Sequence record: OZ346219.1
Source of the DNA: a phage
Length of the DNA stretch: 64,000 bases
Direction: 5' to 3' (one strand)
The notes under the pieces are model-generated. The model was not told the origin of the DNA. It saw only the letters and a list, made by a program, of their open reading frames with translations, and did not search any database. Every line of letters begins with the position of its first letter. The first letter of the stretch is position 1. A program made the translations under genes and the position numbers. Shown piece by piece: positions 17,155 to 24,931 of the stretch.

Positions 17155-19398
17155 TTACAGCTTGCAAGATGAGCACTCGCTAGCGTCTTCCGTACCATCT
17201 GCACCATCACGCACGTTAGCGTAATACAGTGTCTTGAGGCCGTAATATTGAGCAAACAACATATCATCTAAAACATCAGCAATATCGACTTTACCAGTCT
17301 TATAAGTGCTTGGATCGTAGGATGTGTTGGAACTAATCGCCTGATCTACAAACTTCTGCATGATCGCTGCCAGTGTCAGATAAGGCTTGTTACCTTTCTT
17401 GATCAGTGTCCAAAGCAGGTCAATAACATCAGCATTATTCTCTACGTTCGGAATGACCTGATTAAATTGCCCTTCTTTCGATCCTTTAACCGATACAATC
17501 CCGCGAGGCGGTTCAATACCGTTTGTGCTGTTAGATACCTGAGAAGACGACTCACACGGCATCAGCGCCGAAAGTGTACTGTTACGAATGCCATATTTTT
17601 TCAGGTCTTCGCGCAGTTCTTCCCAATCCATCTCATACACCGGATCAACCAGTTCATCTACTGTCTTTTTGTACCAGTCGATAGGCAGTTCACCGCGACC
17701 ATAGCGTGTTTCGTGCATCAGTTCGCAAGCACCCTTCTCTTTAGCCAGTCGCACACTAGCCTTAATCAGAGCATATTGCAAGCGTTCAAACGTTTTATGC
17801 GTAAACTCGTTAGCGTCTTCATATGTGAAGAAATTATCTGCTAGATATGATGCAAAGTTAGTAACACCAACACCCAGAGAGCGACGTTTTTTGGCTGTCA
17901 GAGCTTGTTCTACAGGATAATCCTGATAATCTAACAGGTTGTCAAGTGCACGCACCATAACCATAGCAATGCGTTCTACTTCTTCCATATTTTCGATATC
18001 GAAATTACCTAAAACATATGCTGCCAAAGTACATAGGCTAATTTCTGAATCATCACGACCCATCGGTTTAGTAGGCAGTGCAATTTCACAACACAGGTTA
18101 GATTGTTTAATCGGTGCTACATTACGAATAAACGCCCCGTGATTGTTCATGTTGTCTGTGAACGTTGGGTAGATTCGACCAGTGTTAAAACGTTCAATTG
18201 CCACCGCTAAAAACAGGTCTTCGGCTTTAACACGAGTTTTACGAACACTCGGATCTTTTTCCAGTTTTTCGTAAAGTTGGCGGAAACCTTCCTCATCTCG
18301 GAAGTATAGATCCCACAACAAGCCACCCGCAACATCTGGACTAAACAGAGTAATGTAATCCCGTTTAAGGAATCGCTCTACCATCAGGTTATTAATCTGT
18401 ACGCCGTAGTCAAGATGGCGAATGCGGTTATCTTCCACGCCCTTATTGTTCTTTAACACAATCAGACTTTCAAACTCTAAATGCCACATTGGGTAATAGA
18501 GTGTCGCTGCCCCGCCACGAATACCGCCTTGTGAGCATGACTTAACGGCAGTCTGAAAATGTTTCCAGAATGGGATAACGCCAGTATGACGAACTTCACC
18601 ATGCCCGATCTTAGATCCTTCCGCGCGAATCATGCCAGCGTTGATACCGATACCAGCACGCTTGCTAATATACTTAATGATTGCATTTGCGGTTTCATTA
18701 ATACCCTGCAATGAGTCATCACTTTCGATCACCACACACGAACTAAATTGGCGTGTTGGGGTACGCACACCTGCCATAATCGGAGTAGGCAGAGAGATTT
18801 GCTTATTCGCAACCGCATTATAAAAATCAATCACATGTTCAAGTCGATTTTCGGTCTCTTCTTGATGCAAGCACATACCGATCAGCATATACGCAAATTG
18901 CGGTGTTTCGATGATTTTCTTAGTGCTGCGATCCTGAACAAGATATTTCTCTTTTAACTGCATCGCACCAGCATAGGTCATTTTAAAATCAAGTTTATGG
19001 TCGATGAATTTCTCCAGATATTCCACTTCTTCACGGGAATACTTTTGCAGAATTTCGCGATCATATTTTCCGGTTGCAATATTACGCTCAATATGGCTGT
19101 AAAAATCAATCGGTTGGAATTGACCGTATACTGATTTGCGAAGCGCGAACATTGCAAGGTTACTTGCTACATATTGATAATCGGGTGTTTCTACAGTAAT
19201 GTTATCTGCTGCGACCTTAATCAATACTTTCTGGATATCGTTGGTAGACATACCTTCTGTCAGAAGTGGTTCAACCATATCAAACAATTCATATGGATCA
19301 ACGTTATGACCTTCGGCTGCCGCTTCCAGAATTTTCATTACTTTTTCTTTTTCAAAAGGAACAGTCAGACCGGAAGACTTAACAACATTTTTAATCAT
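17155..19398 (-). CDS. nrdA: ribonucleotide reductase class Ia large subunit
   Basis: 747 aa; ATP-cone N-terminus, C-terminal CSSCKL-type Cys pair. Confidence 0.95.
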   Translation of the reverse strand: MIKNVVKSSGLTVPFEKEKVMKILEAAAEGHNVDPYELFDMVEPLLTEGMSTNDIQKVLIKVAADNITVETPDYQYVASNLAMFALRKSVYGQFQPIDFYSHIERNIATGKYDREILQKYSREEVEYLEKFIDHKLDFKMTYAGAMQLKEKYLVQDRSTKKIIETPQFAYMLIGMCLHQEETENRLEHVIDFYNAVANKQISLPTPIMAGVRTPTRQFSSCVVIESDDSLQGINETANAIIKYISKRAGIGINAGMIRAEGSKIGHGEVRHTGVIPFWKHFQTAVKSCSQGGIRGGAATLYYPMWHLEFESLIVLKNNKGVEDNRIRHLDYGVQINNLMVERFLKRDYITLFSPDVAGGLLWDLYFRDEEGFRQLYEKLEKDPSVRKTRVKAEDLFLAVAIERFNTGRIYPTFTDNMNNHGAFIRNVAPIKQSNLCCEIALPTKPMGRDDSEISLCTLAAYVLGNFDIENMEEVERIAMVMVRALDNLLDYQDYPVEQALTAKKRRSLGVGVTNFASYLADNFFTYEDANEFTHKTFERLQYALIKASVRLAKEKGACELMHETRYGRGELPIDWYKKTVDELVDPVYEMDWEELREDLKKYGIRNSTLSALMPCESSSQVSNSTNGIEPPRGIVSVKGSKEGQFNQVIPNVENNADVIDLLWTLIKKGNKPYLTLAAIMQKFVDQAISSNTSYDPSTYKTGKVDIADVLDDMLFAQYYGLKTLYYANVRDGADGTEDASECSSCKL

Positions 19399-19466: not shown

Positions 19467-20699
19467 TTATACTGCCATTTGAGCGGTGATTGCTGGATGG
19501 CTTTGATAGTTGTGAATTTTAAAGTCTTTCGGAGTCTTTGTCAATACCTCATCTAAAGATTTAAATTCCGGCAACTCAATCGTTGGTTTATCAAACGGAA
19601 CACGGCTTAACTGTTCCATAACTTGATCAAAATGGTTTTTGTAAATGTGAGTATCTCCACCAGAGAAAATCAGTTCTCCTACCTCAAGATCACACATTTT
19701 CGCTATGATGTGAGTTAACAGCGCATAGCTGGCGACGTTAAAGGGCAAGCCTAAAAAGCTGTCTACGCTTCTCTGAAACCACATACAAGACAGTTTACCT
19801 TCATTGACGTAGAATTGCACGAAAGGATGACATACACCCAATACAGCATTATGTGTTCCTTGTACGTTCCATGAGTCAATAATGATCCGGCGATCCGTTG
19901 GATTGTTTTTAATTTGTTCAATCACGTTTTGTAACTGGTCTTCCCAAATCTTCGGGCGATAGACATATTCTTCATCGTCTTTAGTGCTCGATGTGTCTAC
20001 GTCCATACTAGCAAAGATCGTGGTATCTGGTGCTAAAATATCCCCACCCAGATAATCACTATCAAGCAGATAACCGAAATAACCATCATCTACCCATTCC
20101 TGGAATCCCCACAAGCAATATGCATCATTAACAAAATTAGATTGAGTCTTCCAGTGGTCTGCTACTAAGAATAGATTATACTCAGAATCAAACTCTTCAT
20201 AACGCATACCACGCCAGATAGCACATAAACGGTCTTCTGTTTCATTGGTTGGCGTAAAGTCTTCTACCCACGGGTGCTTAAATGTATGTGCATATTTGCT
20301 CTTAACGCGCTTAATTTTGATTTCACCGTGTGGATGAATCGGTTTGCGTCGCCATGCCATACCATACATATTGCCGACATTATAACCATTGAATCGCAAA
20401 GGATTCTTTTCTTTCATATCAAGACAGTTGCCGCGCCAAATGTCGAAGGCTTCTTCGTCAAACTTACCGCGTGTAATTTCCTGTAAGCGACGGCGGTCAA
20501 GTGATCCCTCCATAAACCATAGCAATTCGCCAATTACAGAGGCTGTAGCCATCTTTTTAGTGGTTAGTAAGGGGAAACCCTTGCTTAAATCAATTCGCAT
20601 CTCTGCGCCGAATTTAGAGAGCGTACCTACCCCCGTGCGGTCTTCACGAGGCCAGCCATTATCAAGAACATCACGCAATAGTTTCAAATATTCTTTCAT
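19467..20699 (-). CDS. td: thymidylate synthase with a large internal insertion
   Basis: N-terminal DRTGVGTLS...GFPLLTTKK and C-terminal DSFLGLPFNVASYALLTHIIAKMCDLEVGELIFSGGDTHIYKNH match ThyA; 410 aa instead of about 265-290. Confidence 0.9.
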   Translation of the reverse strand: MKEYLKLLRDVLDNGWPREDRTGVGTLSKFGAEMRIDLSKGFPLLTTKKMATASVIGELLWFMEGSLDRRRLQEITRGKFDEEAFDIWRGNCLDMKEKNPLRFNGYNVGNMYGMAWRRKPIHPHGEIKIKRVKSKYAHTFKHPWVEDFTPTNETEDRLCAIWRGMRYEEFDSEYNLFLVADHWKTQSNFVNDAYCLWGFQEWVDDGYFGYLLDSDYLGGDILAPDTTIFASMDVDTSSTKDDEEYVYRPKIWEDQLQNVIEQIKNNPTDRRIIIDSWNVQGTHNAVLGVCHPFVQFYVNEGKLSCMWFQRSVDSFLGLPFNVASYALLTHIIAKMCDLEVGELIFSGGDTHIYKNHFDQVMEQLSRVPFDKPTIELPEFKSLDEVLTKTPKDFKIHNYQSHPAITAQMAV

Positions 20700-21618: not shown

Positions 21619-21948
21619 TCAAATCAGTTTGAAATAGTTTTCGTTTACATTTTCTTCTGTGATTGCTGTCTTAAATTCTTGACCGTTATCCGGTGTGATG
21701 AAATAACGGTCAGAATAATCACGAAAACGTTTTAAGTGAGATACCCCAACATTAACACCATTTTCCCAGAAACGAAAGGTAATCATTTTTGGTTCATATC
21801 GATAATCGCTGGTTAACACAGTACCATCCCCGCGACGGGCTTCATAAACCGTAATACATTCACGATTAGCGGCTTTAAGGCATTCTTCAATAGTGCCGCA
21901 CGAGATAATACTTACTTTTTCATCTACGATTTGTTCTACAGTCCACAT
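21619..21948 (-). CDS. hypothetical protein (about 110 aa)
   Basis: Start trimmed to Met12 downstream of promoter cassette 21980-22007. Confidence 0.4.
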   Translation of the reverse strand: MWTVEQIVDEKVSIISCGTIEECLKAANRECITVYEARRGDGTVLTSDYRYEPKMITFRFWENGVNVGVSHLKRFRDYSDRYFITPDNGQEFKTAITEENVNENYFKLI

Positions 21949-21979
21949 AATATAATACTCTCTTTGTTTCGATATGTGC

Positions 21980-22007
21980 ATTATACACTATTGCGTTACG
22001 CTGTCAA
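21980..22007 (-). promoter_or_regulatory. early-type promoter cassette
   Basis: TTGACA, 16 bp, TATAAT. Confidence 0.5.
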
Positions 22008-23180
22008 CTCTTTTTCAAAAGATTTTACAATATACATGATAGTGCTCAATTCAGACGGCGCTACTGTCTCTGTGTAGCCGTCCGGCATATCTTCTTTTGA
22101 GATATAGGAAGTTTTACCTTTCATAGCTTCCTTGATCTTGTTCTCTAATTCTAAGATCTTTTGACCATCTTGTAAAGTCAATTCATAAAAGATCTCGTGG
22201 TCGAACTGAGATTTACTGCTTTGTTGTTTTAGTCTTTTGGTGGTATTAGAATTTGTGACCCCAAATTTTACCCCGATTAATAAATGCTCTTTTATTAATT
22301 TTTGAATATACAGAGTTCCTTTTTTTAATGGATTGTACCCATATTTTGCACATTTAGGACATCGAGTTCCGTTCTGAAAATCAGTTATTCTAGGACTAAA
22401 TCCATGTCCATGATCACATAACAACTTTAATCTTGTATTCACACCTTTCCATTCATCTACAAAACCATTACATGTTATATTTTCTTCAACGAAAATTGGT
22501 TTAAGTCTTTCAAGATATTCTTCTTTTGAACGAGCATAGTTTTTTGCACACTTAAAACAACGTCTTCCCGCTTGAAAACTAGATATAATTGGATTAAATT
22601 CATGACCATACTCACACAATAAATTCATTTTTGTTTTGTTGCCGTTCCATTCACCAATAAATCCGTTAAAAATTATGTTCTCTTTTATGAAAATTGGTTT
22701 AAATCTTTCAAGATATTCTTCTTTTGATAAAGCATAATTATGTGCGCATTTAGGACATCGAGTCCCTCTCCGAAAATTTGTTATTGTCGGTGCAAATTCG
22801 TGTCCTTCACAACACACTAAATCTAACTTTGTGAATACACCTTTCCATTCATCTACAAAACCATTACATGTTATATTTTCTTCAACGAAAATTGGTTTAA
22901 GTCTTTCAAGATATTCTTCTTTTGATAAGGAATAATTATGTGCGCATCTAGGGCAACGTTTACCTTTTTGAAAATCTGATATTCTTGGTGTAAATTCATG
23001 TCCTTCACAACACACCAAACCCAATTTTGTTACGTTGCCTTTCCACTCACCAACAAATCCATTAAATACGATATTTTCTTTTTCGAAAATTGGTTTAAGT
23101 CTTTCGTAATATTCCGTAGGACTAATCGAGTTGTATTTTTTCTTAACCCATTCAATCTCATGAGCTTGACGTACTAACAT
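21996..23180 (-). CDS. tandem-repeat zinc-ribbon protein with T5orf172/GIY-YIG-like C-terminal domain
   Basis: Four repeats of about 62-66 aa (EEYLERLKPIF...NGFV.EWKG...CxxGHEF...RCPxCA) then GTLYIQKLIKEHLLIGVKFGVTNSNTTKRL; 85-bp exact DNA repeat at about 22438 and 22847. Confidence 0.6.
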   Translation of the reverse strand: MLVRQAHEIEWVKKKYNSISPTEYYERLKPIFEKENIVFNGFVGEWKGNVTKLGLVCCEGHEFTPRISDFQKGKRCPRCAHNYSLSKEEYLERLKPIFVEENITCNGFVDEWKGVFTKLDLVCCEGHEFAPTITNFRRGTRCPKCAHNYALSKEEYLERFKPIFIKENIIFNGFIGEWNGNKTKMNLLCEYGHEFNPIISSFQAGRRCFKCAKNYARSKEEYLERLKPIFVEENITCNGFVDEWKGVNTRLKLLCDHGHGFSPRITDFQNGTRCPKCAKYGYNPLKKGTLYIQKLIKEHLLIGVKFGVTNSNTTKRLKQQSSKSQFDHEIFYELTLQDGQKILELENKIKEAMKGKTSYISKEDMPDGYTETVAPSELSTIMYIVKSFEKELTA

Positions 23181-23209
23181 ATTTTATCCTCCGTTGTTTC
23201 GATGTGTGC

Positions 23210-23237
23210 ATTATACATTACAGCATCAGCATGTCAA
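23210..23237 (-). promoter_or_regulatory. early-type promoter cassette
   Basis: TTGACA, 16 bp, TATAAT; downstream of gene 32 terminator, upstream of zinc-ribbon repeat gene. Confidence 0.5.
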
Positions 23238-23262
23238 TACATTTTCATAAAATTTTAGGCAA

Positions 23263-23290
23263 TAAAAAAAGCCTCCCCGAAGGAAGGCTT
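23263..23290 (-). terminator. intrinsic terminator after gene 32
   Basis: Minus-strand AGCCTTCC-ttcg-GGGAGGCT (UUCG loop) followed by TTTTTTT. Confidence 0.65.
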
Positions 23291-23299
23291 TAAAATTCA

Positions 23300-24274
23300 T
23301 TACATCCCTAACAGAGCGTCAAGATCATCCAGATCAGAAGCGGAGGAAGTACCGCCACCCAGGTCCAGAGATGCCATCAGATCATCAGCGGAAGAATCTA
23401 ACGCCGTGCTAGCTGCGTTAATACCAACTACAGTGCTAGCTGCGGTAGTACCAGCGTCGAATGCATTCATCTGTGCGTCAAAATCATCAAGCTGGCTGTT
23501 AATCGCTGCCGCAGCACTGGAAGCCGCCGCACCAGCTACCATAGAAACGCCCATAGTTTTCTTAAATTTGGTTTCCAGTTCATCGAACGGTTTAAACTGG
23601 CTAGGCGCTACAATCTCACTCAGATCAACCATGTTTTCCATCAGATATTTCTGATATGCTTCGTCTTCAATTTTCGGAAGCTGTGATTGCTGCATGAAAC
23701 GAGAATCGTCATAGTTCTGGTGTTTATCAACCTTCTTAGCTTTCAGGAGGAAGTTAGCACCGGAGAACACACAAGTTACATCTACCGGAACTTCGCCCAT
23801 GTCGGTATTCACGTTCACCATTGCAACGATCTTATCATAAATTTTCTGACCGAAGCGGAATTTGAATACCTTACCTTCATTTTCTGGTGCTTGAGGATCT
23901 TTCAGTACCAGAATATTTGCGTAGTAAGAGGCTTTACGCTTAATCAGTTGCCATTCTGTTTTATCGGTATTGTACAGGTCTTTTTCGTTAATATATTTGC
24001 ACACAGGGCAAGAATCAAAATCACCGTGGGTGCTTGAGCAGTTTTCCCAATACCATTTACCATTAACTTTGAAGGAATGGTTTACCAGTTTCACAATCGG
24101 CAGACCGTCTTCTGTCTTAGACGGCAGGAAGCGAATCAGGGCTTCACCGTTACCTGCTGCATCAGTCTTAATCTTCCACTCTTTCGGATCTTCTTTGGAG
24201 AAACCGTTGCCACCTTTCAGTGCGGCCAGTTGAGCTTGCAGTTTGGAAGAATCTTGACGACGAAACATGTTCAT
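23300..24274 (-). CDS. 32: single-stranded DNA-binding protein
   Basis: Strong match to T4 gp32 ([11 protein letters not shown]..., zinc site [12 protein letters not shown], acidic C-terminus); start may be Met3. Confidence 0.95.
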
Positions 24275-24334: not shown

Positions 24335-24931
24335 TTAATTGCTTGTCAATACTTTATCAATTATATCTAACAGTTTTGGCTTTCTATTTTCAAATTCTAA
24401 CATCTCTTCGGGAGAAATGTCAACTACTTCTGTTTTGTTGAAAAAGTTTGGGTCTATAGCATCAGCAACAAAGTTTCTCGCAAGTGCTGCCGCTTTCTCA
24501 TGGACATATATTCCCAAATATATCAACTTCTTTCTTTCGACCTGAATATTGGCAACATATTTACCATCTCGTTTATAAAGACTAACACCGATATATTCAG
24601 ACGATCGACCTTTCTGTTTACCCATATTTCTTGAGTTTTGTTGCTCGTTCGCATCTCTCAAGTTTTCAATCCGATTATCTGTTATAATTCGGTTAACATG
24701 GTCAACGTATTTTGGCATGTATCCATGATGCATAAAGAAAATTATTCTATGCTCTTTATGATGTTTACCATCGATACACACCAATCTGTATCCATGACTA
24801 GGATTAACTCCACCCGCTCTAGATCCGACTTTATGCTTTCGGTTTGTCGATATCTTGCGAATCAGCTTACCGTTATCATATTTAAAGAGTTCATGACAAC
24901 GAGCATACAATTCAGGATCATATGTTTTCAC
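24335..24931 (-). CDS. free-standing HNH homing endonuclease with AP2-like DNA-binding domain
   Basis: HRIIFFMHHGYMPKYVDHVNRIITDNRIENLR (HNH) followed by SEYIGVSLYKRDGKYVANIQ (AP2-like); inserted between genes 32 and 59. Confidence 0.75.
   Translation of the reverse strand: MKTYDPELYARCHELFKYDNGKLIRKISTNRKHKVGSRAGGVNPSHGYRLVCIDGKHHKEHRIIFFMHHGYMPKYVDHVNRIITDNRIENLRDANEQQNSRNMGKQKGRSSEYIGVSLYKRDGKYVANIQVERKKLIYLGIYVHEKAAALARNFVADAIDPNFFNKTEVVDISPEEMLEFENRKPKLLDIIDKVLTSN

Follow-up and report, generated by a model that had tools for sequence, protein, structure and literature searches.

The window analysed in this study is a 64,000-nucleotide (nt) stretch of phage DNA (sequence record OZ346219.1) from an RB49-like Krischvirus (Straboviridae) coliphage. 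On its minus strand, at 21996-23180, it carries a complete gene for a protein of 394 amino acids (aa), in which four tandem predicted zinc modules are followed by a GIY-YIG-like domain. We consider it probable, at roughly 60%, that the product belongs to the T5orf172 branch of the GIY-YIG superfamily and acts as a free-standing DNA endonuclease directed by sequence; proteins of this class are treated as putative homing endonucleases (PMC10448857). The gene occupies the position that in RB49 belongs to ORF240, annotated as 'endonuclease', and natural alleles of the same slot have shown that the number and order of the repeats were changed by recombination. The gene is not new in kind, because Barth, Dunham and Seed (2023; PMC10448857) already reported homing-endonuclease genes of T5orf172 type in which several CapR/DUF723/DUF4379 zinc modules are arranged as 'beads on a string'; they also described in-frame deletions through recombination between degenerate repeats, swapping of domains, and a tendency of the genes to lie next to essential genes. 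Documented here beyond that work are a series of alleles with two to six units at one fixed slot and a promoter-bounded cassette. These phage nucleases, homing-type T5orf172 proteins with strings of zinc modules, form a recently described and almost wholly uncharacterised class, and the slot offers a clean natural experiment in well-sampled, easily grown coliphages, with a conserved nuclease joined to two to six modules.

Architecture of the encoded protein

Residues 23-286 consist of four tandem units of exactly 66 aa each. Tandem Repeats Finder reported a period of 198 with 3.4 copies and 75% matches, and a repeat search of the DNA gave four copies in an exact 198-nt register; pairwise identity of the four units is 55-73% at the aa level and 69-79% at the nt level. 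The motif C-x3-H-x14-C-x2-C is present in 4/4 units and supplies two predicted ligand pairs per module. On the minus strand, module 1 (aa 23-88) occupies 22917-23114 with predicted ligands C57, H61, C76 and C79; module 2 (aa 89-154) occupies 22719-22916 with C123, H127, C142 and C145; module 3 (aa 155-220) occupies 22521-22718 with C189, H193, C208 and C211; and module 4 (aa 221-286) occupies 22323-22520 with C255, H259, C274 and C277. The Pfam CapR homology domain (PF21817) matched the repeats in four stretches (E 1.5e-20, 73.6 bits, cut-off 24.2), and a match to DUF4379 (PF14311, 'probable treble clef zinc finger'; E 1.3e-8, 35.3 bits, cut-off 24.5) was also obtained. The initial annotation, made from the sequence without database searches, had come close with repeats of 62-66 aa over residues of about 23-290, and its four zinc-ribbon-like Cys/His sites were borne out by the motif and the two family matches. 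None of the three Cys varies across 55 units, in which the His is also mostly kept; of the 12 Cys ligands, seven are invariant in 27 full-length homologs and another three are almost invariant.

The module is widespread: a profile of a single unit matched 38,558 representatives of 50%-identity clusters at E 1e-3 or better, and 16,232 at E 1e-10 or better. The initial annotation had set its interpretation against two outcomes, the lack of a nuclease-like C-terminus and repeats of a common annotated fold; the nuclease-like C-terminus holds, but the repeats do belong to a common annotated family. In proteins P0090-P0227, members of the 66-aa module family have up to 16 tandem units per protein and reach lengths of >1,600 aa; in the long arrays that were sampled, DUF4379 and CapR were the sole strong Pfam matches, accompanied by a few weaker matches to unrelated families.

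An AlphaFold model, for which 27 homologs served as input, predicted for each unit a 14-residue helix, a beta-hairpin, a short strand and a short helix that precedes the CxxC knuckle. For the whole protein, the mean predicted local distance difference test score was 89 and the predicted template modelling score was 0.36, which together indicate well-folded domains lacking a fixed mutual arrangement, a 'beads on a string' pattern. A sequence-profile search of chains in the PDB gave chance-level matches only, apart from weak DUF4379 proteins.

The C-terminal part (aa 287-394, about 108 aa; 21999-22322, minus strand) is supported by homolog alignment, family matches among the homologs, conserved residues and the predicted structure as a T5orf172/MUG113-type GIY-YIG-like domain with a Tyr/Arg/Glu core of catalytic type. 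The C-terminal 114 aa alone scored 21.7 bits against the Pfam family MUG113 (cut-off 22.3) and 16.4 against T5orf172 (cut-off 20); alignments of the domain to homologs above these family cut-offs reached E 3e-23 to 4e-16, and among 23 diverse homologs MUG113 was matched in nine and T5orf172 in eight. Eight residues (Y291, K305, G307, R316, E346, G368, T370 and E371) are invariant in these 23 homologs, down to 28% identity, and no other part of the protein is as well conserved; the catalytic roles of Y291, R316 and E346 were assigned from motif order rather than by superposition. The model of this region adopts the GIY-YIG alpha/beta fold, with GIY-YIG nucleases as its best structural match. 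The C-terminal motif quoted in the initial annotation lies at aa 288-317, and the T5orf172/GIY-YIG likeness proposed there gained support from the above-threshold homologs, the invariant Tyr, Arg and Glu and the model, the protein's own scores being marginal.

The whole 394-aa protein matched PHROG 681 'endonuclease' at E 5e-91, and a scan against NCBIfam returned nothing meaningful. The coding sequence starts with an ATG at 23180-23178 and ends with a TAA at 21998-21996, and its N-terminal leader (aa 1-22, beginning MLVRQAHEIEW; 23115-23180, minus strand) is kept among same-slot alleles of related phages. A Shine-Dalgarno sequence, GGAGG, is read 7 nt 5' of the ATG (23188-23192, minus strand). 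Further upstream, a perfect sigma-70 consensus promoter (TTGACA-16 nt-TATAAT, 12/12; 23210-23237, minus strand) follows directly after the intrinsic terminator stem-loop 3' of gene 32 (23268-23291, minus strand), with which it makes up a composite of PeSL (promoter-early stem-loop) type (PMC2839356); the record of phage GEC-3S annotates a promoter at the equivalent site. A pseudogene or chance open reading frame (ORF) was rejected because of the intact frame, the Shine-Dalgarno sequence, the consensus promoter and the presence of homologs in 702 phage records. Paralogs of the gene were sought elsewhere in the window and none was found. The guanine-plus-cytosine content is 32.7% in the endonuclease gene, 40.4% in the window and 44.9% in gene 32, and the low value of the endonuclease gene fits an accessory gene that moves horizontally or evolves fast.

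Allele series and recombination at the gene 32 slot

The endonuclease gene lies between gene 32, which encodes the single-stranded-DNA-binding protein (23300-24274, minus strand; Pfam gp32, E 1e-51) and is its upstream neighbour in transcription order, and a small conserved ORF next to frd, the 109-aa homolog of RB49 ORF239 (21619-21948, minus strand), which has no Pfam family and is its downstream neighbour. The same slot holds an 'endonuclease' in RB49 (485 aa; ORF240, NP_891811.1), Phi1 (460 aa; ORF240), GEC-3S (392 aa; BN201_0241), Delraymugoa (542 aa) and JEP8; it is empty in PHB13, contains an unrelated 109-aa ORF in G5211, and contains both this ORF and an endonuclease in FL37. The initial annotation had observed that T4 has no gene of this kind between frd and gene 32. 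T4 indeed lacks T5orf172 genes (PMC10448857), but it was the wrong comparator, since RB49, Phi1, GEC-3S and others carry the gene in this very slot. DNA of the nuclease domain was found in 29 of the 59 Krischvirus records that have gene 32, so that presence or absence is polymorphic among close relatives at one fixed intergenic site beside a conserved gene. The unrelated 109-aa ORF, which likewise has no Pfam family, is the sole occupant of the slot in G5211 and the MIZ phages and accompanies an endonuclease allele in FL37; it is located at 1905-2234 of the locus excerpt in both G5211 and FL37.

Compared with the empty PHB13 site, the insertion in the window comprises 21991-23180. It is bounded by a duplicated promoter/leader, that is, a 64-nt direct repeat with a downstream copy at 21964-22027 and an upstream partner, obtained in the repeat search, at 23194-23257; the two are 78% identical, and the PHB13 site has a single copy. 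The downstream copy includes a second perfect sigma-70 promoter (12/12; 21980-22007, minus strand), which serves the downstream small ORF and whose -35 hexamer TTGACA is formed by the last codons (L-T) of the endonuclease gene. The upstream border thus has a stem-loop (23291-23268) and a promoter (23237-23210), whereas the downstream border has the promoter/leader repeat (22007-21980) without a stem-loop. This duplicated-promoter cassette resembles the PeSL cassettes of phi1 and RB49 (PMC2839356), apart from the missing stem-loop in the downstream copy.

Same-slot homologs in the databases have in common the leader MLVRQAHEIEW at the N-terminus and about 75 aa at the C-terminus that hardly vary, and differ in the number of units: two in P0007; three in P0002, P0005 and P0006; four in the window and P0004; five in P0003; and six in JEP8 and Delraymugoa. 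No database protein equals the window allele exactly, and the best matches were P0002 (three units; 95% identity over 79% of the length) and JEP8 (six units; 68%). The leader is conserved in GEC-3S, JEP8 and Delraymugoa but differs in RB49, and the arrays of RB49, Phi1, GEC-3S, Delraymugoa and JEP8, with about four to six units, vary in sequence as well as in number; the RB49 units are of a 'C-x2-HHGEY' type, unlike those of the window. In comparison with RB49, Phi1 and GEC-3S, the flanking DNA is about 95% identical and the nuclease domain 82-85%; DNA homology is lost at about 22355-22371 and is regained from the start codon on (in GEC-3S, from 23154).

The metagenomic ENA contig k99_430 has the same gene order and a three-unit allele that is about 98% identical to the window gene, with 25 mismatches over some 990 aligned nt, mostly near the two ends. 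The two genes otherwise differ by an exact in-frame insertion or deletion of 198 nt, the junction of which lies within GTGTGTTGTGAAGGACAYGAATTT, a sequence common to units 1 and 2. We regard this as direct evidence for unequal recombination between units. The change in repeat number by recombination that the initial annotation had envisaged is therefore seen in nature, in alleles of two to six units and in this exact one-unit difference. The allele pair also makes two questions testable, namely how module number and order relate to DNA specificity and whether these genes home.

The units are also shuffled and form mosaics between alleles: unit 1 of the window equals unit 1 of JEP8, for instance, and unit 6 of JEP8 is the nearest match for the zinc-knuckle half of window unit 2. 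Within the window gene, an exact 89-nt repeat is present in the N-terminal half of module 4 (copy A, 22441-22529) and in the N-terminal half of module 2 (copy B, 22837-22925). The copies are offset by 396 nt, or two units, and encode the peptide SKEEYLERLKPIFVEENITCNGFVDEWKGV; such a repeat within 1.2 kb is far beyond chance. The initial annotation had recognised this exact repeat, although it gave 85 bp at about 22438-22528 and 22847-22927, which places the start of the second copy about 10 nt off. The C-terminal halves of units 2 and 4 share only 64% nt identity, and this mosaic of exact and diverged halves looks like a partial gene conversion.

Proposed function and competing explanations

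Under the proposed reading as a homing-type endonuclease, the gene would be transcribed early from its own consensus sigma-70 promoter, which is seen as sequence. The four independently folded 66-aa Cys3His modules of CapR/DUF4379 type would jointly bind an extended DNA site, by analogy with CapR, in which cysteines are required for DNA binding, and the tethered C-terminal GIY-YIG-like domain with its Tyr/Arg/Glu core would cut nearby, by analogy with the phage ICP1 protein Odn, which is inactivated by mutation of the Glu. In a mixed infection, cutting of a relative that lacks the gene or has a sensitive allele would trigger recombinational repair, through which that relative would acquire the gene along with nearby markers (gene 32, frd). 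Apart from this, recombination that uses the 198-nt repeats and the constant ends of the gene alters how many modules there are and in what order, as natural alleles show, and presumably alters specificity too. Zinc binding, DNA binding, a target, cleavage and homing of the window protein are in this way inferred from sequence, structural model and analogy.

Several observations weigh against this reading. The C-terminal domain of the window protein itself scores slightly under the Pfam cut-offs for MUG113 and T5orf172. The slot alleles are deeply diverged, with nuclease domains at only 82-85% nt identity and arrays that can barely be aligned, and a gene that has long been resident and is diversifying would account for this divergence at least as well as an active invader. 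By contrast, a second endonuclease gene of the window, of HNH-AP2 type, is near-identical across genomes: it was found in 12 Krischvirus records, in ten at 98.5-99.8% nt identity and in two at about 84%, and looks like a recently spreading homing gene. Moreover, the promoter repeats provide a route of gain and loss that is independent of the nuclease, through PeSL recombination (PMC2839356). Finally, when the flanks of nine loci were compared across the 3' end of gene 32, the promoter region and the 5' end of ORF239, polymorphisms did not separate carriers from non-carriers, and no candidate target or immunity site emerged.

The main rival, which we judge rather unlikely, is a domesticated targeting nuclease that benefits the phage, in which a constant T5orf172 domain is aimed by fast-changing arrays at the DNA of competitors such as co-infecting phages, satellites or host elements, with an arms race leaving its trace in the diversity of the arrays. 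It has a parallel in ICP1 Odn and in the Odn-like nucleases of the coliphages Inny, Muut and Mt1B1_P17, and one slot in close relatives with a constant nuclease and widely different arrays is an Odn-like pattern (PMC10448857, PMC8263062). The deep allele diversity, so unlike the near-identity of a recent invader such as the HNH-AP2 gene, also speaks for it, as does the distribution of variation within the module: among 28 closely related units, most variation falls at unit positions 34-52, around the zinc knuckles and the short helix, with additional variable positions at 3, 11, 16 and 28, and the scaffold residues are fixed. On the other hand, the array DNA had no match at blastn sensitivity in 5,426 complete E. 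coli genomes, and so there is no sign of a binding domain borrowed from a host element, which was the key evidence for Odn; in plasmids, only distant zinc-ribbon proteins of other genera were matched. The gene is also missing from about half of Krischvirus, and a PADLOC scan of the protein gave no match.

The variable residues invite a further, doubtful proposal, namely that the 66-aa modules constitute a natural recognition array programmable by recombination, each unit reading a few base pairs through the variable residues of its knuckle and short helix. If this were true, gain, loss and shuffling of units at the Krischvirus slot would retarget a constant nuclease, in a natural analogue of engineered zinc-finger or transcription activator-like effector nucleases, and the alleles of two to six units could yield a recognition code.

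Less likely than the domesticated nuclease are two other explanations. In the first, which we hold to be improbable, the gene is a passive passenger of a PeSL-type promoter cassette, moved by homologous recombination between flanking promoter/terminator motifs, so that nuclease activity is irrelevant to its spread. In its favour, the borders of the insertion coincide exactly with the two 12/12 promoters in the 64-nt direct repeat (78% identity), of which the empty site has one copy; PeSL-mediated shuffling has been reported for phi1 and RB49, members of the same phage group (PMC2839356, PMC4122927); and other relatives have an unrelated 109-aa ORF in this slot. Such passive movement leaves unexplained, however, why an intact nuclease core has been kept across distant phage families, and it is compatible with the proposed homing endonuclease rather than exclusive of it. 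In the second, a CapR-like DNA-binding repressor or regulator with a dead nuclease domain, the precedent is CapR of PLE, which has the same zinc module and represses transcription (PMC8096241), and the T5orf172/MUG113 scores of the window protein are under threshold; yet CapR wholly lacks a T5orf172 domain, whereas here that domain is the best-conserved part, has invariant Tyr, Arg and Glu and is predicted to adopt the GIY-YIG fold, which makes this explanation very improbable.

Related systems and neighbouring genes

The phages in which tblastn detected relatives include those of Escherichia, Vibrio (ICP1 ORF165), Salmonella, Klebsiella, Aeromonas, Lactococcus and Bacillus, as well as a Campylobacter 'Hef-like homing endonuclease' and ORF141 of phage T5. 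The closest published systems are the genes of PMC10448857 (ICP1 gp165 and gp174 and the six-repeat gene of Vibrio phage Helene), which, like the window gene, combine an N-terminal zinc array with a C-terminal T5orf172 domain, have nt-level repeats that recombine to in-frame deletions of units, and lie beside an essential gene; ICP1 ORF165 is also linked to the window protein by tblastn. They differ in lineage: the window belongs to Straboviridae/Krischvirus, and that paper treats neither this group nor its slot, the terms 'RB49' and 'Straboviridae' having no occurrence in it. T5 ORF141 (T5.141, YP_006969.1), the annotation of which cites similarity to RB49 ORF239C, likewise has zinc modules and a T5orf172-like domain and is 31% identical over aa 151-391 (E 3e-22). 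Unlike the window gene, it encodes 250 aa with fewer modules and is situated among tail genes.

CapR was defined by Netter et al. (PMC8096241), who found that CapR needs its conserved cysteines to bind DNA, and who noted its homology to T5 Orf141 and to the N-terminal regions of putative T5orf172 homing endonucleases of ICP1. The CapR of PLE has a homologous zinc module, which gives Pfam PF21817 its name, but is a stand-alone, satellite-encoded repressor without a nuclease domain; moreover, CxxC...CxC is reported for CapR (PMC8096241), against C-x3-H...C-x2-C in the units of the window. ICP1 Odn (Gp88), the one T5orf172 protein for which endonuclease activity has been shown, cleaves DNA in vitro, and the substitution E180A abolishes cleavage (PMC8263062). 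Odn thereby proves by experiment that a T5orf172 domain cuts DNA when a separate binding domain tethers it, and its T5orf172 domain with catalytic Arg and Glu has a predicted counterpart in the window protein. The binding domain of Odn is a RepA_N domain acquired from its satellite target, whereas that of the window protein is a predicted zinc array without a detectable host-element source.

I-TevI and the Seg proteins of T4 also tether a catalytic domain of GIY-YIG fold to a separate DNA-binding region, but in the reverse order, their nuclease being N-terminal and that of the window protein C-terminal. The DNA-binding region of I-TevI includes a small zinc finger, and I-TevI and Seg have a free-standing or intron-borne selfish lifestyle in T4-type phages.

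The HNH-AP2 gene (24335-24931, minus strand) encodes 198 aa with matches to HNH_3 (E 2e-11) and AP2 (E 7e-5). Its insertion site is between genes 32 and 59, with a 14-nt overlap into the 3' end of the latter, and it is not present in RB49, Phi1, GEC-3S, Delraymugoa, G5211, PHB13 or FL37. The essential gene 32 is accordingly bracketed by two endonuclease genes of different families, an arrangement in line with the idea of a homing endonuclease gene (HEG) island.

The thymidylate synthase ORF (19467-20699, minus strand) encodes 410 aa, which is long for a ThyA, and the middle of the protein seems to contain an insertion of about 120 aa. A td gene of equal length is annotated in RB49 and its relatives, and the long thymidylate synthase is therefore a trait of the genus rather than of the window. 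The nrdA gene of the window (17155-19398) encodes 747 aa, the length found in RB49, and shows no sign of an intein, and the nrdA product of contig k99_430 (4210-4600 of the locus excerpt) has an intein-splicing Pfam match.

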